NCBI GenBank assembly: GCA_963674745.2
Contig: CAXXDV010000003.1
Coordinates: 2,208,001 to 2,272,000 of the forward strand
Direction of reading: 5' to 3'
Source: Desulfosudaceae bacterium
GTDB lineage: Bacteria > Desulfobacterota > Desulfobacteria > Desulfobacterales > Desulfosudaceae
Length of the DNA: 64,000 nt
Part shown: positions 3,834 to 48,110 of the stretch, one piece after another
How positions within the stretch are numbered: position 1 is the first letter of the stretch
Layout: each line of letters opens with the position of its first letter
The notes under the pieces: generated by a model
Told to the model about the DNA's origin: nothing
What the model saw: the letters and a program-made list of their open reading frames with translations, nothing else
The model's database searches: none
Position numbers and translations under genes: made by a program

Positions 3834-4625
3834 ATGACGGGGAGAAATGAAATTATCCGGTTGACCATATTGATTACCGTCTATTCCGAAGAGACTGCGC
3901 TGCAACAGACAATTCAACGGCTGACACAAAATGACTGCGGCTACATTCACGAAATTCTCCTGGTTGTATCCCCCTTATCGTCTCTGAAGTGCCTGGAAAT
4001 CTGCCGCAACCTGGCCGAAGAAAATACGCTGGTCAAATTTATGCTTCAAAAAAATGCCGGCGTGGGGCACGCGGTTCGGGAAGGATTCGCCGTCGCTAGC
4101 GGTGACTACATCACCCTTATGTCGGCTGATCTTGAGAATGATCCCGATACCGTCGATCGAATGGTCAGCCGGATCGAACAGACCGGCTGTCAGGCGGTTC
4201 TTGCCAATCGCTGGCTGAAAAACGGCGGGTTTCAAAACTATCACCCGCTGAAACTGGCCTTAAACTTTTGTTTTCAGCAGGTATTCAAACGCATATATGC
4301 CACCGATGTAGGCGATTTGACGTTTGGTTTCAAGACCTTGAAAAAAGACATGGTCGATGCCATCAACTGGGAAGGGACCTTCCATGAAATTTTCATTGAA
4401 ACGACCTTGAAACCGTTGCTTCAGAATGCATCCATTTACCAGGTCCCCACGGTCTGGACGGGACGAAAAGAAGGGGTCAGTAAAAACAGTTTTTTTATTA
4501 ATTGCCGATACGTCTGGCTGGCCGTCAAGCTGATCCGTCACATTCCGGCGCAACGAAAAAAAGCGCACGAGGCGACAGGAAAACCCGCCATTGCCGTTCC
4601 CCGGCGGGAACACAACGAACTGTAG
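3834..4625 (+). CDS. Glycosyltransferase family 2 (DPM1-like)
   Basis: ITVYSEE, NAGVGHAVREGF, MSADLENDP, DLTFGFK, GRKEGVSK. Confidence 0.85.
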   Translation: MTGRNEIIRLTILITVYSEETALQQTIQRLTQNDCGYIHEILLVVSPLSSLKCLEICRNLAEENTLVKFMLQKNAGVGHAVREGFAVASGDYITLMSADLENDPDTVDRMVSRIEQTGCQAVLANRWLKNGGFQNYHPLKLALNFCFQQVFKRIYATDVGDLTFGFKTLKKDMVDAINWEGTFHEIFIETTLKPLLQNASIYQVPTVWTGRKEGVSKNSFFINCRYVWLAVKLIRHIPAQRKKAHEATGKPAIAVPRREHNEL

Positions 4626-4687
4626 CACATGCGGTTCCAACAAGACCGGTTGGCAAAAGACGGATCTTCAGGCATAGGAGTGCCGAT

Positions 4688-6193
4688 GTGCATGTTACCC
4701 TGATTAACCCGCCGGCTCTTGTCGGGCGGTTTAATTATTCCGCTTTTACCCACCCGCCAATGGGACCGGCCTACCTGGCCGCCTGCCTGCGGCAGAAAGG
4801 GCACACGGTAAGCATTATTGACGCCGTAGGCGAGGCGATATCAGAGTTCGCTCCCTATCCGCCTTCAAACCGTTTCCTGGTACAGGGATTGCGATTTGAT
4901 GACATTATCCACCGGATCCCCCCCGAGAACGCGCTTACCGGTATTTCCTGCATGTTTTCACATACCTGGCCGCTGGTCAGGGGACTGATCCGGCAAATAA
5001 AATCCGCTTTCCCCGATGTGCCCGTTATTGCAGGCGGTGAACACCCCACCGCCCTGTACGCGTATTGTCTCCGCCAGGCGCCCCTGGAGGCCTGTGTTCT
5101 GGGGGAAGCAGAAAATACGATCGTCGAAATCGCCGACGCCCTGGAAAACGGATGCCCCCTGTCTGAAATCGAAGGGATCGCCTGGATAAACAAGGAAACC
5201 CGGGAAGTGGTGAGAACCGGAGAGAGAAAGGTGATTACCGACCTTGACACCCTGCCCTCACCGGCCTGGGACCTGATTCCCTGGAAAGAATACAGGCTTT
5301 TTGACGGGCCGGTGCTGTCGCAGCCTTTTGCCATTTTGGCGTCCCGAGGATGCCCTCACAATTGCGCCTTCTGTTCTGCCCCGAACATGTGGCAACGGGT
5401 ATGGCGGAAACGGACACCGGAGAACATCATTCAGGAGATGATGGATTATATCTCAGCCCACCGGATTGCGGAGTTCCAATTCAGGGACATCAGTCCGCTG
5501 ATCCAACAAGAATGGATCCAGGATTTATGTATGACGATCCGTGAGCAACTCCCGGGCATCCGCTGGCAGATGCCGGTCGGCGGCCGGCCGGAAGTGATAG
5601 ACGAAACAACGGCCGGGTTACTGGTCAGTTCCGGATGCCGGCATATCCAGTTCGCCCCGGAAAGCGGCAGTCCGGCCGTATTGGCGGCCATGAACAAACA
5701 TTTGGATTTAAACCGGTTCAAACAGGCCGTGGTAGTGGCAAAAAATGCGGGCATGCGCATCAGCGTGCTGTTTATCATCGGTTTTCCCGGTGAAACCCGT
5801 CGGGACATCATGCTGACCTACCGCCTGATACGCTGGCTGGCAAGACATGACGTCGAAGAAATCGCGGTTTCCTCTTTTGTACTGCTGCCGGGAACACAGA
5901 TATTTAATCGAATAACCGCTTCACGGACATTAAAAATAGACGATGCCTTTTTTTATCAAGCGGCGGGCGCAACTGCCTTTACCCCCTCGGCTTCCTGGAA
6001 CCCGGATATGGGGAAATTTTCCCTGCTGATATACAAATGGCTGGGACTGATTCAATTTTACGCCATTGCTTTTTTCCGCCACCCCTCGAGGCTGACACGG
6101 ATACTATCAAACCTGAGAAGGGGGCGGCAGGAGACCAAAATCGACCGTGTTATGGCGGAAATCGTCACCAAAATCAAACGACGTGCTTTTTAA
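4688..6193 (+). CDS. B12-binding domain radical SAM protein
   Basis: PPMGPAYLAA, IAGGEHPT, SRGCPHNCAFC, APESGS, IIGFPGET; GTG 4688 follows AGGAG (ORF track starts 4502). Confidence 0.9.
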   Translation: MHVTLINPPALVGRFNYSAFTHPPMGPAYLAACLRQKGHTVSIIDAVGEAISEFAPYPPSNRFLVQGLRFDDIIHRIPPENALTGISCMFSHTWPLVRGLIRQIKSAFPDVPVIAGGEHPTALYAYCLRQAPLEACVLGEAENTIVEIADALENGCPLSEIEGIAWINKETREVVRTGERKVITDLDTLPSPAWDLIPWKEYRLFDGPVLSQPFAILASRGCPHNCAFCSAPNMWQRVWRKRTPENIIQEMMDYISAHRIAEFQFRDISPLIQQEWIQDLCMTIREQLPGIRWQMPVGGRPEVIDETTAGLLVSSGCRHIQFAPESGSPAVLAAMNKHLDLNRFKQAVVVAKNAGMRISVLFIIGFPGETRRDIMLTYRLIRWLARHDVEEIAVSSFVLLPGTQIFNRITASRTLKIDDAFFYQAAGATAFTPSASWNPDMGKFSLLIYKWLGLIQFYAIAFFRHPSRLTRILSNLRRGRQETKIDRVMAEIVTKIKRRAF

Positions 6194-6333: not shown

Positions 6334-8643
6334 TCAAAAGCCCGGGCCCTCATCAACCCGTGAGATATTCAGGTCAATCCGCTTGAGCATGTTTTTGAAT
6401 TTCGCATTATCCGGTTCGTATGCCATGGCTCTGCGAATAAAAGCCAGAGACCGTTCCGGATTGTCCAGCCATAACATCAAATCCGCGGCCCGATAGTACG
6501 CCTCACCATCGGGCAGACCGATTGTAAGGGCCTGCTGCATCAGTTTCATTGTCATACGCCGATCTCCCGCAGACAGCCATTTTTCGGCCCTGTTCATCGT
6601 CTGAATGGCATAGTCAATGCGTTCGGTTACGGTCCGAACGTGTGTATCGTTAAACCAGCCATCCGACGGTCCTGCAGGCTCCTTGAACAGCACGGGATCA
6701 TAAACGGGAAAATAAGGCACGATATATCCGGCGCAGGCCGCTTTTTCCTTGTCTGAGTCCAGGACCTGAAAAATCTGATAATACCTGTTCCGGTACACCA
6801 GCCTCAGCCGCCGGAAACTGTCCGGCGCAAAGTGCAGCCGGTAGGTCAGGTTGTTCCGGGGTACTTTAGACAGCCCCGCCAGATAACGTTTACCGTCAGG
6901 GTCGGCCTTTAAGAGGTTCCGGATGGGATAAAGATAATAATCGGTCTCCAGATCATCAAGCATTCGGTAAAGGGCATCTTCATCCTGGCCGAAAAGGGTC
7001 AGCAATATTTTCCGGTGCTTTTCCCTGATATCTTCGGCTTCCATCTTGGGATGCTGATTAATGGCCCGTCCGGTATAGGCCAAAATCGAGGGGCTGTTCT
7101 CTATATTACTTAAAAATACGGCCGTATCAGGGGTATGATGCCTTATCCAGTCCAGCATGTGCTTCTCATCTCCGGCATAAACCGCCAGACGCGGTCGTGA
7201 ATTATCGGCGCCAAGTTGTCTGGCCGTTTTCGCCAGATATGTGTTGTCCCACAACACCGCTTCCCGAACCTGAAAAATCAGGCACGCGGCCAGCATGATA
7301 CCCGATAGCCGGTTTTGATTAAAATAAACAGCCCGGTCCGGGGCAGCCCCTGTTTTTGTCCTGTCGGAGAGGAAAAGAAAGGCAACCGCCGTTCCCAGAA
7401 AAAAGGCGCTGAAGATAATCAGCCGCTGCGCCATGATGTTTGCCCCCAGAAACATGACGGCCAGAAAAATGACCATGAGCTCATCAAAACGGGCTTGACG
7501 CCGTTTGGTTTTAATAAAGCAGGCAAATGCCATCAGGGCCAGCGGCAGCAGCAGGCCGAAACGATAAATCAGAAAAAAAAACGGCGGGCTATTAAACGGA
7601 CCGTTCCAGAGAATGCGCCCTTCAAAGGGTAACATCCCCGGATTGTCGGGCTTGACCAGGAGGTTGGACAATTTGTATTTAAACAGCGCCCAGACATGGC
7701 CATAAACGGAATTTTCGGTTCCCAGAGAAAAGATCAGAAGGATGAGAACAACACCGGACGCCAGCAAAAACAGGCGAGAAAAAAAATTCAGGCCGATTTT
7801 CGTATCAATGAACAATACGATTACCACCAGAACGCCGGTCAGCACGGCCGGTGAAAAAAGCAGCGCGCTGGTTCGCATGACCGGTGACACCACACCGGCC
7901 GCCGCGACAAACACCAGGACCACAACCGCCGTGTTAAATTGATGCCGTTTGCCGCCGGTAAAAAGAAAGGCCCAGGCCATGGCGGCCCAGAACATCAACA
8001 GATAAAAGCGGGTAAAATGCCAGCAGACCAGGGCGGCGGTCAGGCAGACACCGGACAAGGCGGCCGAGACCATTGGATATGGCCGGCCCCGCAGGGCATA
8101 CAGGCAGGCGGCAAAAGACAGTGCCATCAACGGAAAAGCCGTGGCCTCGAGTTCATAAAACTGCACCCGCCCGAATGCCGCACCGGAAAAGGCATACAGG
8201 GCGGAAATATACAGGGCCGGCCAGGACCGGCCGCCAAGCGCCCGTACACACAAAAACACCGCCGGAACCGTCAGGCAGGAAAAAAAAGCGATAAAATAAA
8301 CCAGAAACGTGTACAGGGAAACATTTGGGAAAAAACCGGAAAACAGGCGGAAGGACAGGCCATGCAGATATTCCTGAAACAGCGTCAGCTCCCGGAAAGG
8401 GGTTATCCCTTCCGGCCATTGCGGTTTTTTATCAAACAGAGGGATCGGTTCGTCATCGGCCACCATCCGGGTATGCCGGAATTGAAACGCCTCTTCGGTA
8501 TAAAATGACCCGATATCCGCATCAATGTCATAATATGACAGTTCTTTGAACCGTTCCGCCCGATGAAACGCGGCACCGGTGATGATAACCGCCAAACACA
8601 GCCAAACAAAAAATGGCCGGTATTTTTCCTGGGGTATATTCAT
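6334..8643 (-). CDS. GT-C fold membrane glycosyltransferase, DPY19-like (STT3 superfamily), with C-terminal TPR
   Basis: Many TM helices; SFYTEEAFQF, RVQFYELEATAFP, WHFTRFYLL, WIRHHTPDTAVF...TGRAINQHPKME resemble DPY19 blocks; no WWDYG motif. Confidence 0.7.
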   Translation of the reverse strand: MNIPQEKYRPFFVWLCLAVIITGAAFHRAERFKELSYYDIDADIGSFYTEEAFQFRHTRMVADDEPIPLFDKKPQWPEGITPFRELTLFQEYLHGLSFRLFSGFFPNVSLYTFLVYFIAFFSCLTVPAVFLCVRALGGRSWPALYISALYAFSGAAFGRVQFYELEATAFPLMALSFAACLYALRGRPYPMVSAALSGVCLTAALVCWHFTRFYLLMFWAAMAWAFLFTGGKRHQFNTAVVVLVFVAAAGVVSPVMRTSALLFSPAVLTGVLVVIVLFIDTKIGLNFFSRLFLLASGVVLILLIFSLGTENSVYGHVWALFKYKLSNLLVKPDNPGMLPFEGRILWNGPFNSPPFFFLIYRFGLLLPLALMAFACFIKTKRRQARFDELMVIFLAVMFLGANIMAQRLIIFSAFFLGTAVAFLFLSDRTKTGAAPDRAVYFNQNRLSGIMLAACLIFQVREAVLWDNTYLAKTARQLGADNSRPRLAVYAGDEKHMLDWIRHHTPDTAVFLSNIENSPSILAYTGRAINQHPKMEAEDIREKHRKILLTLFGQDEDALYRMLDDLETDYYLYPIRNLLKADPDGKRYLAGLSKVPRNNLTYRLHFAPDSFRRLRLVYRNRYYQIFQVLDSDKEKAACAGYIVPYFPVYDPVLFKEPAGPSDGWFNDTHVRTVTERIDYAIQTMNRAEKWLSAGDRRMTMKLMQQALTIGLPDGEAYYRAADLMLWLDNPERSLAFIRRAMAYEPDNAKFKNMLKRIDLNISRVDEGPGF

Positions 8644-13282: not shown

Positions 13283-13300
13283 CCGCCTGAAATTGTATCC

Positions 13301-13349
13301 GCAAACAGTGTTTACTAAAAGAATCTACCAGATATGGAACCAATGTCAA
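13301..13349 (-). promoter_or_regulatory. Sigma70-like promoter with downstream palindromic operator
   Basis: TTGACA (13349-13344), 16 nt, TGG-TAGATT (-10 at 13327-13322), then GTAAACACTGTTTGC (13315-13301). Confidence 0.6.
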
Positions 13350-13392
13350 GTATAATTTAGCCGTCCATCAGAAATGTTGACAAGGAATATGA

Positions 13393-13679: not shown

Positions 13680-13719
13680 GCACCTAAACACTTAATCACA
13701 TAACCTCCTAATCACATTT
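13680..13719. repeat. 8-bp repeat array, opposite orientation, degenerate
   Basis: cacctaa acacttaa tcacataa cctcctaa tcacattt. Confidence 0.7.
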
Positions 13720-13731: not shown

Positions 13732-15981
13732 ATGTCGCACTGGCTTCACAAACATACCGGGGCATTGATCAAGGTCCGCGATCCATGGCGGACCTTGCTG
13801 GTGCTGTCAGTGTTGGGGATGATATGTGTAACTGTTTACGGCAACACGTTAAACGCGCCGTTTATGTTTGACGATGTGACCAACATCACCAAAAATCCCC
13901 GGATTTACATCCAGGCGCTGACCTTGGATTCCCTATCAGATTTTCTCAAGGATGATACGCTGAACCGTCCCCTGGCATATTTTACCTTTGCCCTGGATTA
14001 TTACGTTCACCGTTTTGACGTCACCGGATATCACATCGTTAACTGGCTGATCCATCTTGCAAGCGGTCTGCTGGTCTATTTTCTGACACGTCAGACGCTG
14101 CGGTTAATGAACAAAAACATTCCGGGCGCCCCATTTCTGGCAGCAGCCCTATGGATGACCAATCCCGTGCATACCCAGTCGGTCACCTACATCGTTCAGC
14201 GGATGAACGCCTTGTCGGCCATGTTCTACCTCGCCTCCCTGGTGTTTTACATCCGGGCCCGGACCGGCCAATTGATGGGTAAACGTCCGAAAAAAAAGTC
14301 ATTTATCTTATTTTTCCTGAGCGCGGGAGCGGGCATCTGCTCGCTGGCGTCAAAACAGATTGCCGTCACCCTGCCGCTGGTCCTGTTTCTGTATGAGTGG
14401 TTTTTTATCCAGGACCTGCGCAAAACCTTTGTTAAAAAGCAAACGGCCTGGATATTAACCATCGTTGCGGGCATCACCCTTTTGGCACTGATTTTTTTGA
14501 AAGGCAACCCGGTCTCGGCCATCATGTCCGACTATGACAAGCAGCCCTTTACCATGGGCGAACGTCTGCTGACCCAGCCCCGGGTGATTGCTCAATATCT
14601 TTCATTACTGCTGCTGCCCTTGCCGGAGCGCTTGAGCCTCGAGCACTGGGTGCCCGTCTCGAGAACCCTGACAAGCCCCGCCACCACCTTGCCGGCCCTC
14701 GGCCTGTTGATGCTGATAACGCTCACAGCCGTTCTCAGAGCCAAAAAAAACCGCCTGTTCGCCTTTACCGTGTTCTGGTTCCTGATCACCCTGGCCGTGG
14801 AATCTTCTTTTATCGGCCTGGCCTTAATGTTTGAACACCGCACCTATCTGCCCTCGGTCTTTCTGTTCATCACCATCACCTGCGGCCTGCGGCAACATGT
14901 CCGGCCCGGCTGGCTGGCAACGGCAACAATGATCGTGCTGATCGCTGTCTCCGGGTTTTGGACCCGGCAGCGAAATGATGTCTGGGCCGATGAGGTCCGG
15001 TTCTGGCAGGACAACATCAAAAAATCGCCCAAAAGCATCCGGCCCTACAACAATCTGGGTGTCGCCCTGGCTGTAAATGGCCGTTATGAGGAAGGTATCG
15101 CCGCCTGCCTGCAATCCATCGCCCTGTCGTCGCCGGCGACCAACACCGCCAACGCCTACAACAACATCAGCAGGATGTATCAAAAACAGGGCGACAGCAC
15201 CAGGGCCATTGCCTACGGCAGGCGGGCCATCGAGATTGATCCGGGTCTGGGCGAGGCGCACCTGAACCTGGGTAAAGCGCTGCTGGCAGAGAACGATCTG
15301 GACGAAGCCGTCACCCACCTTGAAAAAGCGATTGAACTGGCACCCCTTTTGACACCGGCATACACCATACTGGCGCAGGCGTATTACAGCAAGGATGGTA
15401 ATGTGGACAACGCCATCAATATCTGCCGCCAGGCCCTTCTGACTGATCCCGAAAATGCGGCTGCTGAAGTTTTCATGGCCGGCCTGTTACAGCAATCAGG
15501 GAAACCGCAGCAGTCACTGGCACACCTGCAGCGCGTTCTTGACAAGCACCCGGTAAATCCGCAGGCCAATCTCTATGCCGGCATAGCGTTCAATATGATG
15601 GGAAAACCGGACCGGGCGATCGCCCATCTCCTCCGGGCCGCAAAGGCCATACCGGACAACGCCCGGATTGAAAATGAGCTGGCATCGGCCCTGACGGCCG
15701 TCAACCAGCAGGCCATGGTGCTTGCCGGTCAAGGGCAGTTCAAAAAAGCCGCCGGCATTCTGGAAACGCTTGAAGCGCTAATGCCGGGGTCACCGACCGT
15801 CTCTTACAACCTGGCCTGCCTCTATGCCCTGCAAAATCAGGTTGATCAGTCGGTCCGTCATCTGAAAAAAGCACTAAAAAAAGGATACGACGACTGGGAA
15901 ACCCTGCGGACGGACTCAGACCTGGAGACTATTCGGGGGACAGCGATCTATCAGGAACTGGTTTCGCCCCAGGAGAGATAA
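13732..15981 (+). CDS. TMTC-like GT-C glycosyltransferase with TPR repeats
   Basis: PFMFDD, NPVHTQSVTYIVQR, ASKQ, FEHRTYLPS, TPRs, terminal YNLAC..GY..W...D.DL motif. Confidence 0.88.
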   Translation: MSHWLHKHTGALIKVRDPWRTLLVLSVLGMICVTVYGNTLNAPFMFDDVTNITKNPRIYIQALTLDSLSDFLKDDTLNRPLAYFTFALDYYVHRFDVTGYHIVNWLIHLASGLLVYFLTRQTLRLMNKNIPGAPFLAAALWMTNPVHTQSVTYIVQRMNALSAMFYLASLVFYIRARTGQLMGKRPKKKSFILFFLSAGAGICSLASKQIAVTLPLVLFLYEWFFIQDLRKTFVKKQTAWILTIVAGITLLALIFLKGNPVSAIMSDYDKQPFTMGERLLTQPRVIAQYLSLLLLPLPERLSLEHWVPVSRTLTSPATTLPALGLLMLITLTAVLRAKKNRLFAFTVFWFLITLAVESSFIGLALMFEHRTYLPSVFLFITITCGLRQHVRPGWLATATMIVLIAVSGFWTRQRNDVWADEVRFWQDNIKKSPKSIRPYNNLGVALAVNGRYEEGIAACLQSIALSSPATNTANAYNNISRMYQKQGDSTRAIAYGRRAIEIDPGLGEAHLNLGKALLAENDLDEAVTHLEKAIELAPLLTPAYTILAQAYYSKDGNVDNAINICRQALLTDPENAAAEVFMAGLLQQSGKPQQSLAHLQRVLDKHPVNPQANLYAGIAFNMMGKPDRAIAHLLRAAKAIPDNARIENELASALTAVNQQAMVLAGQGQFKKAAGILETLEALMPGSPTVSYNLACLYALQNQVDQSVRHLKKALKKGYDDWETLRTDSDLETIRGTAIYQELVSPQER

Positions 15982-15985
15982 ACGT

Positions 15986-18145
15986 ATGATTACCGTAAAT
16001 CATAATGAAGAATTAACCTTCCGCAAAACGGCCCTGGCTGTTTTTCTGCTGATCTACGCCATTGGCGCCCTGATTTACGGCCATTGTCTTTCAGCCCCGT
16101 TTTATTTCGATGACATGGAAAGCATCGTTGAAAACCCCCACGTTCGAATTACCCGGCCGGTCTCATCCGAAAAACTGGAAAAAATCGTGAAAGAGGAACC
16201 CGGCAGTCGCCTGCTGCCCATAATAACCTTTGGTCTCAACCACTATTTTGATCAATACCAGCCCGGCGGCTATCGCCTGGTCAACATGATCATTCATTTA
16301 ATAAACAGCTGGCTGGTTTTCTGTCTGGCATGGCAGACATTACGTCTATGCGGTAAGGCCCCTTTTTTCATTTCCCTGGCGTCAGGCCTGATCTGGCTGA
16401 CCATACCGGTACATACCCAGTCCGTTACCTACATCGTTCAACGCATGAACAGCCTGGCCGCCATGTTTTATCTGCTGGCCCTCTTATGCTATATTCAGGC
16501 CCGTCAGCACCGGCTTAATGGCACCGGGGTACGCGTTATACTATTCTGGTCCGGCGGATGCCTGCTGGCCGGTATCCTGGGATTGGCCTCCAAGGAAACA
16601 ACCGCCACCCTGCCCCTGTTTATTCTTCTGTATGACCGGTACTTCTTTTACGGCAGTAAGCGTTCCGGGCTGACAAAGAACTGGCGTATCCCGGCACTGG
16701 TGGTCTTACTGTTCGGTTTAATCGCCATTGTCTACCTTGGCTGCGACCCCGTGGAGAAACTTGCCGCCACCTATGCCGACAAGCCTTTTTCGCCGGTTCA
16801 GCGGCTTCTGACCGAACCCCTCGTTATTGTTTACTATCTTTCATTGCTGGCTTTTGCCCATCCGGACAGGCTCACCCTGGATTACGATTTTCCCCTTTCC
16901 AATGCAGTGACGGACCCCACCGTCAACCTGTTGGCGTATACCGCCCTGACGTTTCTGTTCATAATGATGTTTTACGCAACACGTAAAAACCGGTTGATAT
17001 CTTTTGCGCTTTTATGGTTTTTCGGCAATCTGCTCATCGAATCTTCGGTTGTCGGCCTGGCCCTGATTTTCGAACACCGGACCTATCTTCCCTCGATCTT
17101 CCCCGTTATTGCCCTGGTTGTTTACCTGACGGACCGTCTTTCTCCCCGCCCGCTGGCAATAGCCGTTATCAGCGCCATCATCATCTGCAACAGTTTCTGG
17201 ACATTTCAGCGCAACATTACCTGGCAGAACCGAACCGCTTTCTGGGAAGACGGGTGCAAGAAAGCCCCGATGCTGACCCGTCCTCATAATAATTTCGGAC
17301 TGGCACTGGCTAAAGCAGGCGACCAGGAAGCGGCAAAGGTTGAATATCAAAAAGCCATCGCCCTGAGCGGCGGAAAAAAAGCACCGCCTTATAACAATCT
17401 GGGAATGCTTTTATACCTTGCGGGGAATACGGACAATGCCATTGAGCATTTTTTAAAGGCCATAGAAACGGAACCGGATTTTGCCAAGGCATACATGAAC
17501 CTGGGCGTCATCAGGGGTGAACAAAAAAGCTACCGACAGGCCATCCGGTTGTTGGAAACGGCCATTGCGCTGCACCCCGACAATTCGGAAGCGCATAATG
17601 CCCTGGGAAAAATCTACTATGAGTCCGGACAGACGCATGACGCCATCCGACACTGTCAACTTGCGCTTAAGCTCGACCAGAGCAATGCCAATGCTGAGAA
17701 CAACCTGGGCGCTATTTTGCTGGGTACCGGCCGCGCTGAACAGGCCCTGCCGCATTTAACCCGGGCCATTTCCCTGTCACCCGAGGTCCCGGAAACCAAT
17801 ATCAATATCGGCCTTGCGTATAAGCAGCTGGGCAATCCGATCATGGCCGTTTTTCATCTTTTCCGAGCGGTTTACCTGGCGCCGGAATACGCGGCGGCCA
17901 GGGCCGAACTCGGGCTCTTCCTGCTGGATGAAGGCAAATACCAGGACGCACGAACGCATCTTGAAAAAGCGATAGCGCTTCAACCCGACCTTGTCAAGGC
18001 GCGTCTGGGACTGGCATCCGTTTTTGAAAACCAGAACCTGACGGATGAAGCGATCAGGCAATATCAAAAAATTATTGCCGACCATCCGGATATTGATATT
18101 GCGCATGAACGATTAAAAGCGCTGGAGAAGAAAACGGAAAACTGA
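15986..18145 (+). CDS. TMTC-like GT-C glycosyltransferase with TPR repeats
   Basis: PFYFDD, PVHTQSVTYIVQR, ASKE, FEHRTYLPS, multiple TPRs; lacks the terminal YNLAC motif. Confidence 0.88.
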   Translation: MITVNHNEELTFRKTALAVFLLIYAIGALIYGHCLSAPFYFDDMESIVENPHVRITRPVSSEKLEKIVKEEPGSRLLPIITFGLNHYFDQYQPGGYRLVNMIIHLINSWLVFCLAWQTLRLCGKAPFFISLASGLIWLTIPVHTQSVTYIVQRMNSLAAMFYLLALLCYIQARQHRLNGTGVRVILFWSGGCLLAGILGLASKETTATLPLFILLYDRYFFYGSKRSGLTKNWRIPALVVLLFGLIAIVYLGCDPVEKLAATYADKPFSPVQRLLTEPLVIVYYLSLLAFAHPDRLTLDYDFPLSNAVTDPTVNLLAYTALTFLFIMMFYATRKNRLISFALLWFFGNLLIESSVVGLALIFEHRTYLPSIFPVIALVVYLTDRLSPRPLAIAVISAIIICNSFWTFQRNITWQNRTAFWEDGCKKAPMLTRPHNNFGLALAKAGDQEAAKVEYQKAIALSGGKKAPPYNNLGMLLYLAGNTDNAIEHFLKAIETEPDFAKAYMNLGVIRGEQKSYRQAIRLLETAIALHPDNSEAHNALGKIYYESGQTHDAIRHCQLALKLDQSNANAENNLGAILLGTGRAEQALPHLTRAISLSPEVPETNINIGLAYKQLGNPIMAVFHLFRAVYLAPEYAAARAELGLFLLDEGKYQDARTHLEKAIALQPDLVKARLGLASVFENQNLTDEAIRQYQKIIADHPDIDIAHERLKALEKKTEN

Positions 18146-18222
18146 AGTGACAATTGATCGTCATCCCGGTTTTGCCGAAAAACCCTTTTTACATCTTTGC
18201 CGACTTCGACTAAAATAGCCGC

Positions 18223-20496
18223 ATGCTAAAATACTGTTGCTCTAAATCCGGGTATCTCTTTGCCGCAGCCATCCTCGCCGTTGTCGGCTGGTACCTGTAT
18301 GCCCCCGCTTTCCATGCGCCGTTCGTGTTTGACGATCTGCCCCAGATCATTGAAAACCCCCATATCCGAATAACCGGATATTCATCGGATATTCCGGCAC
18401 GTTTGATGAACTGCCGCAATCCCAACCGGTTTCTGGCCTATGCCACCTTTGCCCTGAACTATTATGTTCATCAATACGACGTAGCCGGATACCGTGTCGT
18501 CAACGTCGTTATCCATATCATTACGGCTTTCCTTGTTTTTCTGACCGCCAGACTGACCTTAGACCCGGATGGCCGCAAGCGGTCCGTGTTACTGCCGTTT
18601 CTGGCCGCCGCCCTGTGGATGGTCAACCCGGTCCACACCCAGTCGGTGACCTATATCGTTCAGCGCATGAACGCCATGGCCGCCATGTTTACCCTTCTGG
18701 CGCTGTGCTGCTTTGTCCGGGCAAGATTAATGCAGAGGTCCGGCAAACACGGTCTCAAGCCGATCCTGTTTTATGCCGGGGCCGGGGTTTCCGGCCTGTG
18801 CGGCCTGGCCGCCAAGGAAACCACCGCCATCCTGCCGGTCGTGATGATGCTTTACGAATGGTATTTTTTCCAGGACCTGAGCCGTAACTGGATGAAAAAA
18901 CAGCTGGCCCGGATAAGTATCGTACTGGTATTGCTGGTCATCATCAGCCTGGTGTACATGGGCGGACATCCCGTTGACAAGCTGACAGGCATATATGAAA
19001 GTCAGGACTTCACCCCGGGCCAGCGCCTGCTGACCGAGCCGCGGGTGGTCCTGTACTACCTGACCCTGCTTTTTTTCCCTCATCCGACCCGGCTCAACCT
19101 GGATTATAACTTCCCCCTGTCCCTGTCCCTGCTCAATCCGGCCACGACCCTGCCGGCCATCCTGGCCCTGCTGGGCCTGGTCGTTGCCGCCGCCTACACG
19201 GCCAAAAAGCACCGGCTGTGTTCATTTGCCATTGCCTGGTTTCTGGTTACCCTGGTCATTGAATCATCGTTTATCGGGCTGGCCCTTGTTTTTGAGCACC
19301 GCACCTACCTGCCATCCGTGTTCCCGGCCATAGCCGTCACCTGTTTTCTCGTCCGCCAGGTCAAACCGCTCCCGGTGGGCGTCATGATCGTTATCGCGGC
19401 CATTATTTTATGCGGTTACAACACCTACCAGCGAAACCGTGTCTGGGACAGCACCCTGGCTTTCTGGCAGGATTGCCGTGCCAAATTCCCCAACAAACCC
19501 CGTATCCTCAACAATCTGGGGATGGCATACAAAGAAATCAATAAAACCGTTGAAGCCCGCCGGGCATTCGAAGCTGCCCTCGCCAGTGATCCCGAATGGA
19601 TATATGCACTTAACAACCTGGGTACGATTGTGCTCGAAGAGGATAACCCCGAACAAGCCGCAGGATTTTTTGAAAAAGCAATTCTAATTGAACCGGGTTA
19701 TTACGAAGCCCATTATAATCTTGGATTGGCCCTGATGGAAATGAATCGGGTCGGACCGGCGATCCAGTCGTTTAAGAAGGCACTGGAATTCAACCCCTTT
19801 TACGAAAAAGCACACAACAATCTGGGAGCAGCCTTGATACAGCGACTTGACCTTGACCTGGCAATTGAGCATTTTCAGCGCACCCTTTCCCTGGATCCGT
19901 TCTTTAGCCAGGCATACAGCAATTTGGGCGTCGCTTTTTATAAAAAAGGCATGGTTGACAAGGCCATTGAGTGCTTCAACAAGACTCTGGATATCGACCC
20001 CTTTCATCTTGACGCTTATAACAATATGCGATGGGTAAAATCAAAATCAAAAAAATACCGGGATACCATTATCGGCCTCAAAAAACGCCTTGCCCGCGAT
20101 CCGGATAATCCCCGGTTGTGTTTCCGTCTTGCCGAAACCTATAACCGGGCCGGCATGACCGGACTCGCCCTGGAATACTATGAGAACGCCTTAGCCCTGC
20201 AACCGAATGCGATCGACGCCCTGCTCATCATGGGCGATTTCTACGCCGCCCATTATCGATACCAGCTGGCAGCCGATATTTATGAACGGCTGGCGGACCT
20301 GCGGCCGGAGTCCGCGAATGTGCATTATAATCTTGCATGCCTTTATGCGCTTCAAAACAAGCCGGAGAAAGCCGTAGCCGAACTGAAAGCGGCCGTTAAC
20401 AAGGGTTATGGCGACTGGGGGAAAATCGCCTCGGATAAAGATCTTGAAAATATCCATGACACAGCGTATTTTAAAAAAATTGTGAATAACCTTTAA
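18223..20496 (+). CDS. TMTC-like GT-C glycosyltransferase with TPR repeats
   Basis: PFVFDD, NPVHTQSVTYIVQR, AAKE, FEHRTYLPS, TPRs, terminal YNLAC motif. Confidence 0.88.
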   Translation: MLKYCCSKSGYLFAAAILAVVGWYLYAPAFHAPFVFDDLPQIIENPHIRITGYSSDIPARLMNCRNPNRFLAYATFALNYYVHQYDVAGYRVVNVVIHIITAFLVFLTARLTLDPDGRKRSVLLPFLAAALWMVNPVHTQSVTYIVQRMNAMAAMFTLLALCCFVRARLMQRSGKHGLKPILFYAGAGVSGLCGLAAKETTAILPVVMMLYEWYFFQDLSRNWMKKQLARISIVLVLLVIISLVYMGGHPVDKLTGIYESQDFTPGQRLLTEPRVVLYYLTLLFFPHPTRLNLDYNFPLSLSLLNPATTLPAILALLGLVVAAAYTAKKHRLCSFAIAWFLVTLVIESSFIGLALVFEHRTYLPSVFPAIAVTCFLVRQVKPLPVGVMIVIAAIILCGYNTYQRNRVWDSTLAFWQDCRAKFPNKPRILNNLGMAYKEINKTVEARRAFEAALASDPEWIYALNNLGTIVLEEDNPEQAAGFFEKAILIEPGYYEAHYNLGLALMEMNRVGPAIQSFKKALEFNPFYEKAHNNLGAALIQRLDLDLAIEHFQRTLSLDPFFSQAYSNLGVAFYKKGMVDKAIECFNKTLDIDPFHLDAYNNMRWVKSKSKKYRDTIIGLKKRLARDPDNPRLCFRLAETYNRAGMTGLALEYYENALALQPNAIDALLIMGDFYAAHYRYQLAADIYERLADLRPESANVHYNLACLYALQNKPEKAVAELKAAVNKGYGDWGKIASDKDLENIHDTAYFKKIVNNL

Positions 20497-41957: not shown

Positions 41958-42125
41958 TGTGAAAGGGGGTGATAAGGGCAAACTGGTTCTATCCAGACTC
42001 TGTTTTTTAGAGTCGACTATCGTCGGACTACCGTGCAAAACCCAAGCACATCCTTGGTCGGCGAAAAAGTTAAAAGTACTCAATTTAGTAAACCAAACGC
42101 TCAATCAACTTGTGGAGGAAACAGA

Positions 42126-42662
42126 ATGAAGAAGTTAATCGTTAGTTTAGTTGTCGGCGCTTTACTGGTATTGCCGCTTTCCGCTATGGCCATGGACGCC
42201 ATCAGCAATGCTGAGCTTGACGGCGTAGCCGGTCAGGCCGGTGTTACCATCGGCTTTGGCGGTACCACCACCACCACCATCGATTTCAGCGAGCTGAGCT
42301 GGGGAGATCCGGACGGCCTTGGTGCCGGTTGTGGCGCTAATCAGGGCTGGCTGATCATTGACGGTGATATCAGCATACAGCAGATAATTGCCGACGGCCA
42401 GACGCTGACACTGGATGTCGGTACCACCAACGCGGACAGCTGTAGCCCGGGCACAGACGCCGTTGTGATTCCCACTTCCGGAACCACCTTTGTCGCGGTG
42501 GGGCTGCCGTCTACCACAATGAACATCAGTGTTGCCAATCAGCTGACCATCGGGATGGGCACCGCAGCCGGCACCATTGCCGGTACAGTCGGCCTGCTGA
42601 ATCTGGAAAGCCTGTCAGTTGATGCGGGTACCCCAACTACCCTTTACATCTGGGCGCACTAA
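42126..42662 (+). CDS. Secreted DUF6160/FilA-like subunit (putative major subunit, copy 1)
   Basis: GGAGGA RBS; signal peptide ending SAMA; MDAISNAELDGVAGQAGV; G/T-rich beta pattern; ends LYIWAH; 178 aa. Confidence 0.8.
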   Translation: MKKLIVSLVVGALLVLPLSAMAMDAISNAELDGVAGQAGVTIGFGGTTTTTIDFSELSWGDPDGLGAGCGANQGWLIIDGDISIQQIIADGQTLTLDVGTTNADSCSPGTDAVVIPTSGTTFVAVGLPSTTMNISVANQLTIGMGTAAGTIAGTVGLLNLESLSVDAGTPTTLYIWAH

Positions 42663-42696
42663 TTCGTTTTTCAATCTCAGTACGTTTCGGGGGAAT

Positions 42697-43299
42697 ATGT
42701 CTGCTTCAACGGGCATAAATCAAAAAAAAGAGTGGTTAAGACGGATTACCTTTGCCGGCCTTATCCTGATGTTCGGCTTTGCCGTTGTTTCACCGCTACC
42801 CTGCTCGGCAATGGAAGCCCTGACCCAACAGGAACTGGGTGATTTATCCGGAAGGAGCGGTATCAGTATGGGATTCGCCAGCCCTGCGACCGTCAGGGCG
42901 ACGTTTACCTCGCTGAGCTTCGGGGACTCAGATGGCTGGGGCGATGGCACAGGCGGAACTAATAATGCCGGCTGGCTGGTACTCACCGGCAACGGTGCCG
43001 AGTTAAACATTGAGATTCCTGCTAACGCGCAACTTGACATTGATGTCGGCCACACCGTAAGCACCTGCGCCCCCAAGAGTGGCGCAGCTTACGCCGGGTT
43101 AAAAATTCCGGCCGACTCCACTTTTTTTACTTTCAGCCTGACCGAAACCAATATTGTCCTGGTGGTTCCGGATACTGTCTATATTGGTCTCAGCCAATCG
43201 GGCAGTTCAGTAGGTGATTATATGGGTTATATGCGGGCGGACAATGTCGCCATCGATAAAGCGAACAAGAAAAGCTCCTGCTATATTTGGACGCATTAA
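42697..43299 (+). CDS. Secreted DUF6160/FilA-like subunit (divergent paralog)
   Basis: Signal ending PCSA; MEALTQQELGDLSGRSGI; SFGDSDG..GWLV, LDIDVG, ends YIWTH. Confidence 0.78.
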   Translation: MSASTGINQKKEWLRRITFAGLILMFGFAVVSPLPCSAMEALTQQELGDLSGRSGISMGFASPATVRATFTSLSFGDSDGWGDGTGGTNNAGWLVLTGNGAELNIEIPANAQLDIDVGHTVSTCAPKSGAAYAGLKIPADSTFFTFSLTETNIVLVVPDTVYIGLSQSGSSVGDYMGYMRADNVAIDKANKKSSCYIWTH

Positions 43300-43359
43300 C
43301 GATAGCGCCCCCGTACTGAAAAAAAGAGGTATTACAACAACCAACATAAGGAGAAAGAA

Positions 43360-43896
43360 ATGAAAAAACTCGGATTAATTTGTTTAATCGTTAGTTTACT
43401 GGCCCTTCCGATGTCGGCCATGGCCCTGGAAAAAATGTCCGGAGAAGATCTGGGCGGCGTTACCGGTCAGGCCGGTGTTACCATCGGCTTTGGCGGTACC
43501 ACCACCACCACCATCGATTTCAGCGAGCTGAGCTGGGGAGATCCGGACGGCCTTGGTGCCGGTTGTGGCGCTAATCAGGGCTGGCTGATCATTGACGGTG
43601 ATATCAGCATACAGCAGATAATTGCCGACGGCCAGACGCTGACACTGGATGTCGGTACCACCAACGCGGACAGCTGTAGCCCGGGCACAGACGCCGTTGT
43701 GATTCCCACTTCCGGAACCACCTTTATCGCGGTGGGGCTGCCGTCTACCACAATGAACATCAGTGTTGCCAATCAGCTGACCATCGGGATGGGCACCGCA
43801 GCCGGCACCATTGCCGGTACTGTCGGGCTGCTGAATCTGCAGAGCCTGACCGTTGATGCGGGTACCCCGAGTACCCTTTACATCTGGGCTCACTAA
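43360..43896 (+). CDS. Secreted DUF6160/FilA-like subunit (putative major subunit, copy 2)
   Basis: AAGGAG RBS; signal ending SAMA; LEKMSGEDLGGVTGQAGV; mature part nearly identical to 42126-42662. Confidence 0.8.
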   Translation: MKKLGLICLIVSLLALPMSAMALEKMSGEDLGGVTGQAGVTIGFGGTTTTTIDFSELSWGDPDGLGAGCGANQGWLIIDGDISIQQIIADGQTLTLDVGTTNADSCSPGTDAVVIPTSGTTFIAVGLPSTTMNISVANQLTIGMGTAAGTIAGTVGLLNLQSLTVDAGTPSTLYIWAH

Positions 43897-43938
43897 GATC
43901 CCTGTGTCCGTTTGATGTATTATAACGGATAACAATAT

Positions 43939-43990
43939 GGATGTTTTTGGGCAGGCGGTAAAATAAATATACCCCTGCCCGAAAACATCC
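43939..43990 (+). terminator. Long intergenic stem-loop (terminator or mRNA-stabilising element)
   Basis: GGATGTTTTTGGGCAGG ... CCTGCCCGAAAACATCC inverted repeat; no clear U-tract. Confidence 0.55.
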
Positions 43991-44009
43991 CTTATAATAA
44001 TGCGCTATT

Positions 44010-45119
44010 ATGCAACCATTTAGAACCTTTACCCTCAATCCCAGCCTTATCAGGCAGACGTTCACCTGCTTTCTTTTTCTTTTGATTACCGTTTCTGCTT
44101 ACGCCGGCACAACTGAATTGTTGTCCGACGCCTGCATAGCAGACATTACAGCCGGTGCCGGTGATACGGTAATAACGGCTTTTTATGAGACCCCGACCAC
44201 AGCCTACATTGATAATACGCCCCGCTGGTGGGGGGATATGGATGGTGCTGCCGGTGCCGGATGCGGTAACGCACCCGGATTTATCGTCACCAACCTTCCC
44301 TACAATGATTTCCAGCATGATAATTTTAAGTATTCATTTAACAGTCAGGCTGAATTGGATGCGTTCATAAATGATCTGGCTACGTTGCCGGGCAGCCCAA
44401 TTAATGTGCTTGCCACTGACTATATCAAAAGCAACCCCGGTACCGACCATATTTTTTCCAATGACGGCAGGCCCCCCCGTGTCCAGGAAATCATCATTAC
44501 CACTGACCAGAAAATAAACGGAGATTTTGTCCGTACCCATAACGGCCAGGTCATTACCCAGAACGTGCGTTTTGACCTTGAATTCCTGCCGCCTTACGCG
44601 AGATCTTACACTACTGAAACAACGGAGCAAACAGCTGAGGGCAGGGACGGGAAAACCGGTCGCCTGCTCCCCTCCAGATCTTTCAGACAGTACAATCAAT
44701 ATGAATGGGTGCAACGAAATAATTCCGGCGTTGAAATCATACGGAATGCGGACGGAACATTCTACTTTACCCAGCGTCAGCCACACACGTTTAATTTCGG
44801 TGCGATTTATCTGGAATGTACGACTACGGGCGATCAGCCCATACTTTCATCTTCTGGTTATGTTGTCGTACCGCCAAACACCACTTTTCTGAGAAACACC
44901 ATTTATAATGATTTGAATGTTTACAGCCCTGCTTTGGGCATGACGATCGGCCTTGCCCCTGCCGGAGAAACCGATCCGGAAACCGGGGAAATTTCTCCCG
45001 ACCTTGATCACTATCAGGAACTGGGAATACTTGATATAAGAAATTTGAATATTTCGCTAAAAGGCGGCAACGATATTTATGTTTATGCCAATGAGGATCT
45101 GGATGTGCGCTGCCCCTAA
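44010..45119 (+). CDS. Secreted FilA-like paralog with large insertions (putative minor subunit)
   Basis: Signal ending SAYA; LLSDACIADITAGAG; WGDMDG..GAGCG, VVPPNTTF, MTIGL, GILDIRNLNI, IYVYA align with the small subunits. Confidence 0.7.
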   Translation: MQPFRTFTLNPSLIRQTFTCFLFLLITVSAYAGTTELLSDACIADITAGAGDTVITAFYETPTTAYIDNTPRWWGDMDGAAGAGCGNAPGFIVTNLPYNDFQHDNFKYSFNSQAELDAFINDLATLPGSPINVLATDYIKSNPGTDHIFSNDGRPPRVQEIIITTDQKINGDFVRTHNGQVITQNVRFDLEFLPPYARSYTTETTEQTAEGRDGKTGRLLPSRSFRQYNQYEWVQRNNSGVEIIRNADGTFYFTQRQPHTFNFGAIYLECTTTGDQPILSSSGYVVVPPNTTFLRNTIYNDLNVYSPALGMTIGLAPAGETDPETGEISPDLDHYQELGILDIRNLNISLKGGNDIYVYANEDLDVRCP

Positions 45120-45260
45120 AAAAGACTTCCAGATCATCGACTTCTATTATCACATTTCCTCTTTGATTATCTCTTATTTTAAGCAAGCGGTTATTACCAA
45201 ATTTATTTACACGGTTTTAATAAACGGAACCAGAACATTCGTGTGTTTTTTAATTTTTTC

Positions 45261-45312
45261 TTTACAAAACAAGTTTCATATGATTAAGCTTAATACGATA
45301 AACAATGTTCAC
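45261..45312 (+). promoter_or_regulatory. Sigma70-like promoter with a third copy of the operator
   Basis: TTTACA (45261-45266), 18 nt, TAAGCT (45285-45290), then ATAAACAATGTTCAC (45298-45312). Confidence 0.5.
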
Positions 45313-45353
45313 CAGTTGATTTTGCTTAAACCGGTGCCTGGGGGAGACTAATT

Positions 45354-46136
45354 ATGCACGTACTTATTGCTTTCTTAATCAGTACTGCCTTGCTTTCCGG
45401 TTTTCTCCCCTCAAGGGAGATACCTGACAATGAGGTGCGTTTTATTTATGCCCCTATTGACGGTATAACAACCAACACGGATTACTATCTTCCCCACGCT
45501 CTCCAGCCGGTCGAACTGCATTTTGAGATGAGAAACGCGTCGGATATAGAAAAATCACGCATTATTTCTCAGAAATATGACTATAGTTGCGGATCTGCTG
45601 CCCTGGCCACACTCTTAAGATACCACCTTGCTGAAGATTTTGAGGAAACGCACATTATTCACGGCCTGCTGAAATACGGGGACAAGGAAAAAATTATAGA
45701 GAGAAGGGCGTTCTCCCTTCTGGATATGAAAAAATTTGTTAATGCCATCGGATACCAGGGCGTGGGCTACAAGGCTGAAATAGAGGACCTTGAAACGCTG
45801 AACATGCCCTGCATTCTACCCATGGAACTTTACGGTTATCGCCATTTTACCGTGTTCAAAGACGTTTATAAAGGCCATGTTTTTCTGGCTGACCCGTTTC
45901 AGGGAAACACCAGCTACCCGATAGAACAATTTAAAAAGTTGTGGCATGAAAATGTTATTTTTGTCGTTTATCCTTCAGGAGAAGAGCAATTGGCCTTATT
46001 AAAATTGAAAAACGACGATCTCCGTTTTATGGATGAAGATCGGACACTGGATATCATGTTTCGAGACAGAATGTTAGAGAAAGAACCAATGCCGATTGAG
46101 ACAGATCCTAAAACACGACAATACTATAAAAGATAA
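45354..46136 (+). CDS. Stand-alone C39-family cysteine peptidase (FapD/FilB-like)
   Basis: QKYDYSCGSAALATLL, FSLLDMK, HFTV, LADP; hydrophobic N-terminus; no ABC domain. Confidence 0.92.
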   Translation: MHVLIAFLISTALLSGFLPSREIPDNEVRFIYAPIDGITTNTDYYLPHALQPVELHFEMRNASDIEKSRIISQKYDYSCGSAALATLLRYHLAEDFEETHIIHGLLKYGDKEKIIERRAFSLLDMKKFVNAIGYQGVGYKAEIEDLETLNMPCILPMELYGYRHFTVFKDVYKGHVFLADPFQGNTSYPIEQFKKLWHENVIFVVYPSGEEQLALLKLKNDDLRFMDEDRTLDIMFRDRMLEKEPMPIETDPKTRQYYKR

Positions 46137-46160
46137 ACCGCAATGCGCCTCAGGAGGTAC

Positions 46161-48092: not shown

Positions 48093-48110
48093 AACGTGAC
48101 AGGAGAATTG

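Follow-up and report, generated by a model that had tools for sequence, protein, structure and literature searches.

We identified, in a genome of the family Desulfosudaceae (phylum Desulfobacterota), a bacterial GT-C glycosyltransferase, P0001, that belongs to the DPY19/STT3 branch and falls under Dpy19 in Pfam. The window analyzed is a stretch of 64,000 nucleotides from this genome (GenBank assembly GCA_963674745.2, contig CAXXDV010000003.1, positions 2,208,001 to 2,272,000 of the forward strand), and coordinates refer to the window unless another source is named. P0001 (6334..8643, minus strand) is a real, well-conserved gene. Its product of 769 residues, read from an ATG start, was characterized from its open reading frame (ORF), Pfam, AlphaFold2, Foldseek and VIA-align as a DPY19-like GT-C glycosyltransferase with C-terminal tetratricopeptide repeats (TPR). 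The gene closes a conserved operon that also encodes two secreted proteins. On balance, we consider it probable that P0001 is a periplasmic protein glycosyltransferase that acts on these fibre proteins of its own operon and uses a polyprenyl-linked sugar donor.

Family membership and spread of P0001

Pfam assigned P0001 to Dpy19 (PF10034) with 58.7 bits (E 4.3e-16; gathering cut-off 27.2). Pfam STT3 (PF02516) did not match P0001 even at E up to 1, nor did it match anywhere in the genome; the control search matched it in four archaea. No NCBIfam model covers the protein, the sole match being one of 18 bits to an archaeal STT3 model with a cut-off of 450. The best PDB chain found by phmmer was Caenorhabditis elegans DPY-19 (CeDPY19; 7zlg, E 2.3e-4, residues 489-577), to which identity is about 15% by Foldseek. 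A profile of 18 TPR-free relatives, used in place of a full alignment that was swamped by matches to TPR proteins, matched CeDPY19 in the PDB (7zlg, E 2.1e-18) over profile positions 105-565, and STT3 chains (E 6.9e-13 to 4.1e-12) solely within the first 250 positions. Moreover, all 61 aligned relatives matched Pfam Dpy19, together with TPR_2 in 50, STT3 in five and PMT_2 in one.

The membrane GT-C module with its predicted periplasmic "dome" spans residues 1-640 (6724..8643, minus strand), based on structural alignments covering model residues 5-628. It is followed by TPR-like helical repeats at residues ~667-764 (6352..6645, minus strand), placed by the model helices 667-764, which would lie on the periplasmic side. 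The TPR_19 and TPR_2 matches of P0001 in Pfam were weak and under cut-off, and residues 675-766 aligned with TPR proteins at Z about 12-13 in VIA-align.

A first-pass annotation of the bare sequence had read P0001 as a bacterial DPY19-type tryptophan C-mannosyltransferase from short motif blocks, and every block that it quoted is in the translation: SFYTEEAFQF at residues 46-55, RVQFYELEATAFP at 159-171, WHFTRFYLL at 208-216, WIRHHTPDTAVF at 499-510 and AYTGRAINQHPKMEAEDIR at 522-540. It had also reported the WWDYG motif of STT3, PglB and AglB as missing, and indeed WWD and WW[DE][YWF]G occur in none of the 61 aligned family members, P0001 among them. The placement in the DPY19 family holds, given the Pfam score above cut-off, the Dpy19 match in every relative and CeDPY19 as the top Foldseek match. 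The position between DPY19 and STT3, the altered Trp(+3) pocket with Met at Tyr578, and the unconserved WxxC acceptor, all discussed below, weaken that reading. The overall pattern is not that of a best match to STT3, ArnT or PMT combined with loss of the DPY19 active site.

A word-indexed search returned 11 relatives, all with a precomputed PF10034 match; the named ones are called "tetratricopeptide repeat protein" and come from metagenome-assembled genomes (MAGs) of Thermodesulfobacteriota and Desulfosudaceae. An exhaustive search of 1.84 billion cluster representatives yielded 749 proteins at E<=1e-3, 572 at 1e-10 and 240 at 1e-30, where each of the 749 bacterial DPY19-like proteins stands for a cluster at 50% identity. 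When 401 genomes sampled from the same phylum were scanned with Pfam Dpy19, five (about 1%) had any match at E<=1e-3, and the window's own genome was the only one above the cut-off. Close orthologues (46-60% identity) were present in four of 12 genomes of the same family (G001, G002, G008 and G011, where the contig ends within the gene), and G004 and G009 carry more distant DPY19-like genes. No P0001 homologue was found in 48 genomes of other families of the same order. Further DPY19-like loci were found in Pirellulales, Elusimicrobia, Eisenbacteria and an unclassified MAG, the locus set derived from a 15-sequence alignment comprising 11 loci. The bacterial DPY19-like family is therefore sizeable but sparse.

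Other members differ in composition. A second DPY19-like paralogue on the same contig, P0016 (G000:C3:831041-832669; L001:1303-3243, minus strand), has 646 residues, no TPR and 28% identity; its catalytic position holds Asp in place of Glu, and its loop-2 motif reads MRED. A G009 gene of the same type lies in L028. One Pirellulales MAG carries two DPY19-like paralogues (L010:7707-10403 and L007:7896-10397), one of which reads YWSESAF, with Glu kept, and the L010 one YWAQNAF, with Gln at the catalytic position. In L010 and L011, the gene immediately upstream of the DPY19-like one encodes an MsrB-MsrA fusion.

Structure of P0001 and its relation to STT3

The AlphaFold2 model of P0001, built on the 61-sequence alignment, has a mean predicted local distance difference test score (pLDDT) of 92 and a predicted TM-score of 0.92. 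A Foldseek search with this model, a check of DPY19 versus PglB and AglB that the first-pass annotation had proposed, placed the three CeDPY19 entries (7zlg, 7zlh and 7zli) on top of the PDB matches (E 9.6e-17 to 2.9e-16, target TM 0.73). The STT3 subunits of human and yeast oligosaccharyltransferase (OST) followed at E 1e-14 to 1e-11, then AglB at 3e-12 and PglB at 1e-9, with AftD, Pmt4, ALG9 and ArnT far behind. VIA-align gave a different order, with STT3A (8pn9_A) at Z 33.5 (554 residues aligned, root-mean-square deviation 3.4 Å) and CeDPY19 (7zlh) at Z 31.8 (584 residues, 3.1 Å), followed by AglB at Z 28.7, PglB at Z 22.9 and ArnT at Z 21.2. The nominal lead of STT3 in VIA-align weakens the DPY19 reading of the first-pass annotation. 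Since Foldseek puts DPY19 first and VIA-align STT3, the structural ranking is about a tie, and the predicted fold is one common to STT3 and DPY19 that by itself assigns P0001 to neither.

The two families are matched by different parts of the protein. A profile of the first ~160 residues from the 11 loci had six PDB matches, all of them STT3 (best E 1.5e-6), and CeDPY19 was not listed at E up to 10, which makes loop 1 STT3-like. In these N-terminal alignments E50 falls on STT3A Asp49, and D71..P77.G79 on the STT3 stretch FDDRAWYPLG. The spacing R159-x6-E166 equals that of STT3A R160-x6-D167. On the other side, the dome loop reads H-P-K-M-E in P0001 and H-P-H-Y-E in CeDPY19 at the place where STT3 has WWDYG. 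P0001 thus looks like a mosaic, judged from these alignments, with an STT3-like loop 1 and DPY19-like sequence from loop 2 onward, including the dome loop. It sits between DPY19 and STT3 rather than cleanly in DPY19, which weakens the DPY19 reading.

These features also bear on a different activity for P0001, namely that of an OST-like enzyme that would take a glycan from a polyprenyl-pyrophosphate carrier and attach it to Asn or some other residue, with a metal at E50/D71, E166 and H316 and with the dome loop replacing WWDYG. The VIA-align order, the STT3-only matches of the N-terminus, the R-x6-acid spacing and the near-invariance of D71 and H316, which have no described role in DPY19, would all suit such an enzyme. 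We nevertheless think it improbable, given the lack of WWDYG and of any Pfam STT3 match described above, and a sequence nearer DPY19 from residue 105 onward. Among the window ORFs, moreover, Pfam scans matched no initiating phosphoglycosyltransferase and no Wzx-type flippase, and the GT2 enzymes there belong to the monophosphate-sugar type. In the candidate acceptors, where N-x-S/T sites were left uncounted, no conserved one was noticed.

Active-site residues

Residues of P0001 were mapped onto CeDPY19 from HMMER alignments, and conservation was counted in a 158-sequence MAFFT alignment of retrieved relatives of at least 550 residues, with a second count on 61 sequences. The roles of the CeDPY19 residues are those described in the relevant passages of PMC10154233. 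The key residues of P0001 obtained by this mapping and by the counts are E50, D71, R159, E166, W208, H316, W346, F350, R407 and H531-P532-K533-M534-E535.

The catalytic Glu71 of CeDPY19, where Asp is tolerated, corresponds to E50, with Glu in 141, Asp in 8, a gap in 8 and Val in 1 of the 158 sequences. The first-pass annotation had proposed to check the Glu of FYTE against the catalytic Glu of DPY19, and it falls both on CeDPY19 Glu71 and on STT3A Asp49, which is named among the proposed catalytic residues in a passage of PMC6801728; Glu or Asp is present in 149/158. The match to Glu71 comes from a low-scoring alignment (-1.2 bits), so that the equivalence rests on collinearity and on the match to STT3 Asp49, a point that weakens the assignment. 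Arg211 corresponds to R159 (143/158), Glu220 of the Rx6LRE motif to E166 (150/158), and the phosphate-binding Trp262 and Arg471 to W208 (155/158) and R407 (Arg in 151, Lys in 6). The loop-2 motif of P0001 is RVQFYELE, bounded by R159 and E166, and R..(I/M)RED in the wider relatives; its spacing is two residues shorter than that between Arg211 and Glu220 in CeDPY19. The catalytic and donor-binding residues of DPY19 are retained across the bacterial family.

Three further residues, D71, H316 and E535, are each present in 153/158 members of the bacterial family, and we found no described role for any of them in DPY19. That they might form an OST-like metal site with E50 and E166 is speculation.

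In CeDPY19 the Trp(0) residue lies in an aromatic groove of Tyr395, Phe401 and Tyr578, with Pro576, and the Trp(+3) pocket consists of Lys473 and Arg211 over a floor of Leu474, according to the same passages of PMC10154233. Phe401 corresponds to F350, aromatic in 140/158. Tyr578 corresponds to M534, a position that is aromatic in 141 sequences (Phe 119, Tyr 16, Trp 6) and Met or Leu only in the close clade of P0001. At the Tyr395 position P0001 has L345, mostly Leu or Met in the family and adjoining W346, which is invariant (158/158); Pro576 corresponds to P532 (Pro in 78, Ser in 64). The pocket residue Lys473 is replaced by I409 at an unconserved position, where the commonest residues are Ser, Thr, Val, Ala, Glu, Gly and Met, with no Lys among these seven, and Leu474 by I410, mostly Val or Ile.

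Could P0001 be a genuine Trp C-glycosyl (C-mannosyl) transferase, which would place a hexose on Trp C2 of the operon's secreted proteins or of other exported proteins by the DPY19 mechanism, with a different sequon? The conservation of the catalytic Glu, of the two arginines and of the Trp that binds phosphate would allow it, as would the residues that are aromatic across the family at two of the three Trp(0)-groove positions, with W346 adjoining the third, and the H-P-K-x-E dome loop, which resembles that of CeDPY19. We regard this activity as unlikely. The loss of Lys473 from the Trp(+3) pocket and the Met at the Tyr578 position of P0001 weaken it, with Met or Leu there and Leu at Tyr395 throughout the close clade. 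The loop-1 acid, the loop-2 Rx6-acid and the loop-6 Arg, present here as E50, R159-x6-E166 and R407, are STT3 features as well, common to both families, and therefore do not point to Trp; Phe401, in turn, also lines the lipid groove of CeDPY19 (in the same part of PMC10154233). Moreover, C-mannosylation is described in a passage of PMC6801728 as restricted to metazoa and alveolates. C-mannosylation is thus not supported beyond the conservation of general catalytic residues.

Alternatively, P0001 might be catalytically dead and use its TPR and its peptide groove to act as a scaffold or a chaperone of fibre subunits. Non-enzymatic roles are discussed for human DPY19L2, and the Pirellulales paralogue in L010 has Gln at the Glu position; both would favour such a role. 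It is nonetheless highly improbable for P0001, which keeps every mappable catalytic and donor-binding residue.

Operon organization

P0001 is the last of four minus-strand genes in the order P0004-P0003-P0002-P0001, separated by gaps of 34, 92 and 16 nucleotides. P0002 (8660..10210, minus strand) is a multi-pass membrane protein with C-terminal TPR, identified from its translation, Pfam TPR and synteny, which has an invariant FDD after its first membrane segment (D31 and D32 are invariant in 11/11 paralogues and orthologues) and is a second candidate transferase. P0003 (10303..12012, minus strand) and P0004 (12047..13282, minus strand), recognized from translation and synteny, are secreted proteins of 569 and 411 residues. 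A promoter-like site, TTGACA-16-TAGATT with TG before the -10, lies upstream of P0004 (13322..13349, minus strand); it scored 10/12 in a consensus scan and is a pattern match only. No cyclic di-GMP riboswitch was found in the whole window at gathering thresholds, nor in 13200-13800 at E up to 1.

The order of the four genes is kept in G002, of the same genus (P0001 54% identical), and in G008, of another genus (46%). The flanking genes are a B12-binding radical SAM gene, a GT2 and an FKBP isomerase and, on the other side, paralogous membrane-TPR genes. In the window, a B12-binding radical SAM enzyme (4502..6193, plus strand; Pfam) is convergent with P0001 and syntenic in G002, G007 and G009. 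Three paralogous membrane-TPR proteins of 749, 719 and 757 residues (13732..20496, plus strand; Pfam TPR, paralogy and synteny) are divergent from the operon. DUF6056 matched 13732-15981 with 30.0 bits (cut-off 27) and 15986-18145 with 25.2 bits, under the cut-off.

The window contains four B12-binding radical SAM genes (1088-2608, 4502-6193, 24381-25829 and 61646-63196), of which the two flanking the operon have syntenic counterparts in relatives; their substrate might be a sugar, a lipid or the secreted proteins. The ORFs listed for the GT2 gene at 3834-4625 and for the radical SAM gene at 4502-6193 overlap by 124 nucleotides, and the TTG start of the latter is probably placed too far upstream.

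Candidate acceptors and the Fil-type locus

P0003 begins with a Sec signal peptide followed by the Fil-type leader MKPLSNEDLGSVMGQ, and P0004 with a signal peptide followed by LNAMTNHELGELEGG; both are candidate acceptors. About 30 kb away lies a Fil-type fibre locus (42033..49928, plus strand; Pfam, NCBIfam). It starts with two FilA-like subunits, P0191 and P0192 (42033-42662 and 42619-43299), which matched NCBIfam FilA with 26-27 bits and one of which passes Pfam DUF6160 (30.9 vs 27). A stand-alone FilB-like C39 peptidase follows (45354-46136, plus strand; NCBIfam FilB 189 bits, E 1e-55; FapD 127 bits; Pfam Peptidase_C39), then a FilC-like protein with a SPOR domain (46143-48092, plus strand; NCBIfam FilC 187 bits) and a FadL-type FilD-like protein (48096-49928, plus strand; NCBIfam FilD 315 bits, E 7e-94; Pfam Toluene_X). 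All NCBIfam Fil scores are under the curated cut-offs, so that this is a distant Fil-type locus. Also encoded in the Fil region (42033-51764) are one more secreted protein (44010-45119) and a propeller protein of the PD40 type.

The FilA-like proteins carry the same post-signal-peptide stretch as P0003 and P0004 (MDAISNAELDGVAGQ and MEALTQQELGDLSGR), and the leader pattern ..L-S/T-x-x-E/D-L-x-x-V/L-x-G-Q/G is read in all four proteins. The leader that follows the signal peptide of the Fil subunits is double-glycine-like. P0003 scored 18.7 bits against Pfam DUF6160, under the cut-off of 27, while P0004 had no match in that scan and neither protein matched NCBIfam. The Atlas look-alikes of both proteins are DUF6160 clusters at 0.92-0.94, which serve as a lead only. 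Both genes are single-copy, with narrow families of 11 and 17 proteins, respectively, from the same lineage.

The first-pass annotation had pointed to WNWDLC in P0003 as containing a DPY19-type WxxC acceptor. The hexapeptide is present at residues 152-157. Its WxxC is not conserved, which weakens the proposal: the second Trp occurs in 11/12 members of the P0003 family, and position +3 is Cys in five, Ala in four, Val in two and Asn in one. WxxW/C is thus found in 5/12 P0003 relatives, and any such motif in 1/17 P0004 relatives, which also speaks against a Trp C-glycosyltransferase. Both families have invariant Trp residues, a point in favour of that activity, none of them in a canonical sequon. 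In P0004 these are W212, W274, W307, W373 and W385. Trp without a canonical sequon fits the loss of Lys473, and a Trp target would have to be recognized in another way than by DPY19.

Candidate donor genes and the surrounding glycan island

A GT2 of the polyprenyl-phosphate-sugar-synthase type (3834..4625, plus strand; Pfam Glycos_transf_2) is the candidate donor maker. Its best PDB matches are Pyrococcus dolichol-phosphate mannose synthase (5mlz, E 8.1e-14), which would also suit C-mannosylation, and ArnC (E 8.7e-12); against NCBIfam AglJ and ArnC it stayed under the cut-offs. It adjoins the cassette in G002 and G008. In total the window has five GT2s, three of them of the polyprenyl-phosphate-sugar-synthase type.

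The interval that separates the operon from the Fil locus encodes an epimerase/dehydratase, a DegT aminotransferase, a NeuD/PglD-type acetyltransferase, a sulfotransferase, two flippase-like LPG_synthase_TM proteins, an Alg14-like/Alg13-like pair and more GT2s. The pair consists of an Alg14-like membrane anchor and a Glyco_tran_28_C (Alg13-like) half in adjacent small genes (29047-30014), a split form of the eukaryotic Alg13/Alg14 GlcNAc transferase. The same interval contains seven more membrane-TPR proteins, which makes nine in the 64-kb window with P0001 and P0002 (8660-10210, 13732-20496, 32581-41675 and P0001 itself). These membrane-TPR proteins resemble an extended group of paralogous, candidate GT-C-type transferases. 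The membrane part of P0002 had no PDB match by phmmer, the PDB profile search with its family was dominated by TPR proteins that mask any GT-C match, and when the P0002 family was compared with the DPY19-like profile by hhalign, the probability was 40% across about 110 columns, too weak to call.

A glycan island of this size, with sugar-biosynthesis enzymes, a sulfotransferase, GT2s, the Alg13/14-like pair and flippase-like proteins, raises the question of whether the acceptor of P0001 is a protein. It might instead be a polysaccharide, lipopolysaccharide or other envelope glycoconjugate of the island, as for the ArnT or YfhO-type GT-C enzymes. The distant relatives of P0001 without protein-type neighbours, and the sister genera in which the fibre proteins occur without a DPY19-like enzyme, would be in keeping with this. 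We consider a non-protein acceptor unlikely in view of the tight, conserved operon with two secreted proteins and of the two closest solved relatives, both of which act on unfolded polypeptides. TPR fusion, which occurs in 50/61 relatives, counts against it as well, being characteristic of GT-Cs that act on proteins, TMTC and TfpW among them.

At the far end of the window, a TPP (thiamine pyrophosphate) riboswitch (55833-55926, minus strand, 69.8 bits) and thiC (52574-53863, minus strand) are separated by an IS110-family transposase (54522-55637, minus strand), whose insertion may have cut thiC off from the riboswitch; a tRNA lies at 55954-56027.

Proposed function

For P0001 as a periplasmic protein glycosyltransferase, we infer the donor and the acceptor from the neighbouring genes and the topology from homology to CeDPY19 and STT3. 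In the proposed sequence of events, a cytoplasmic GT2 of the dolichol-phosphate-mannose-synthase/ArnC type would load a sugar onto polyprenyl phosphate, and the lipid-linked sugar would be flipped to the periplasm. Anchored by 13 membrane helices, P0001 would expose its catalytic loops, its dome and its TPR to the periplasm. It would bind the donor phosphate through R407 and W208, with E50 as the putative catalytic acid/base and R159 and E166 nearby, and would transfer the sugar to Sec-exported, still unfolded proteins. The likeliest acceptors would be P0004 and P0003, which share its operon and have Fil-pilus-type leaders, and which the FilB/C/D machinery 30 kb away probably exports as parts of a surface fibre. 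The sugar might be attached to C2 of Trp, the position used by DPY19, or else to oxygen or nitrogen.

Several observations weigh against this reading, in addition to the low-scoring Glu71 match given above. In G007 and G009, the cassette consists of P0004-like, P0003-like and P0002-like genes, a second P0002-like gene in the slot of the DPY19-like gene, and then the radical SAM gene; Pfam Dpy19 had no match in G007, and the distant DPY19-like gene of G009 lies on another contig. Homologues of P0004 occur in 11/12 genomes of the same family (and, weakly, in 1/48 others), and Pfam Dpy19 matched nothing in five of five tested family genomes without a P0001 homologue (G003, G006, G007, G010 and G012). 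The presence of P0004 homologues in Dpy19-negative genomes means that the fibre proteins do not need the DPY19-like enzyme, which, given also the replacement in its slot, is an exchangeable module of the cassette. Orthologues of the GT2 at 3834-4625 are likewise found in genomes without a DPY19-like gene. The Pirellulales, Elusimicrobia, Eisenbacteria and unclassified-MAG loci have no shared neighbours, so that Fil-type proteins are not a general companion of the family. Finally, the AlphaFold2 model of P0004 from 17 relatives had a pLDDT of 36 and thus offers no fold to search.

The operon with its two secreted proteins provides a concrete candidate enzyme-substrate pair. If the product is an ordinary O- or N-linked sugar, P0001 would be a new enzyme of bacterial protein glycosylation that serves a fibre system so far little studied, a useful but unsurprising result. 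A bolder claim would be that bacterial surface-fibre proteins carry C-linked hexose on Trp in the periplasm and that the family is the prokaryotic stock of the eukaryotic C-mannosyltransferases; we hold this to be slightly more doubtful still than the C-glycosyl activity itself, and if true, it would extend protein C-glycosylation beyond eukaryotes for the first time. The mixed STT3/DPY19 character of P0001 also bears on the divergence of the two eukaryotic enzymes of the endoplasmic reticulum. Our searches of a literature collection returned no paper on bacterial DPY19 relatives, and a 2026 review (PMC12990085) mentions bacteria, in the sections concerned, only as C-mannosyl-tryptophan degraders and as a lectin source.

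Comparison with known systems

The secreted proteins are best compared with the Acinetobacter Fil pilus (NF050077-NF050080, "putative pilus system" FilA-FilD) and the Pseudomonas Fap system (FapD/FapF). The window has relatives of FilB, FilC and FilD as well as FilA-like/DUF6160 subunits. P0003 and P0004 have the leader motif in common with these subunits and differ in being much larger, with no family model that matched. None of the sources consulted links Fil systems to glycosylation.

Three-component periplasmic systems combine a GT2, a flippase and a GT-C enzyme, as in ArnC/ArnT, GtrB/GtrA/GtrC and CsbB/YfhO, and TPR-bearing GT-Cs are represented by TMTC1-4 and Pseudomonas TfpW. The window has ArnC- or dolichol-phosphate-mannose-synthase-like GT2s, flippase-like proteins and GT-C-like TPR proteins side by side, and by analogy the locus may work like such a three-component glycosylation system. 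It differs in that P0001 belongs to the DPY19/STT3 branch and not to the ArnT, PMT or YfhO type, and nine TPR membrane proteins in 64 kb are unusually many.

STT3, AglB and PglB (PF02516) match P0001 structurally as well as DPY19 does. The loop-1 acid, the D..(W/Y)P.G stretch, the loop-2 R-x6-acid and the loop-6 Arg even lie at almost the same residue numbers as in STT3A. P0001 departs from STT3 in lacking WWDYG and a Pfam STT3 match, in its DPY19-like dome loop and residues 105-565, and in that no pyrophosphate-carrier pathway genes were seen nearby in the Pfam scans of the window.

C. elegans DPY-19 and human DPY19L1-L4 (PF10034; 7ZLG/7ZLH/7ZLI; named GT98 in CAZy according to a passage of PMC6801728) share with P0001 the 13-helix GT-C fold with a luminal or periplasmic dome. 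Glu71, Arg211, Glu220, Trp262, Phe401, Arg471, Pro576 and Glu579 of CeDPY19 have equivalents in P0001, and neither protein has WWDYG. P0001 differs from DPY19 by its C-terminal TPR, the loss of Lys473, Met at Tyr578 and Leu at Tyr395, the extra invariant D71 and H316, a loop 1 nearer STT3 and likely acceptors without a conserved WxxW/C. Since P0001 is bacterial, it would face the periplasm, and polyprenyl instead of dolichyl donors are expected. Taken together, P0001 is a bacterial, TPR-fused DPY19 variant of mixed STT3/DPY19 make-up.

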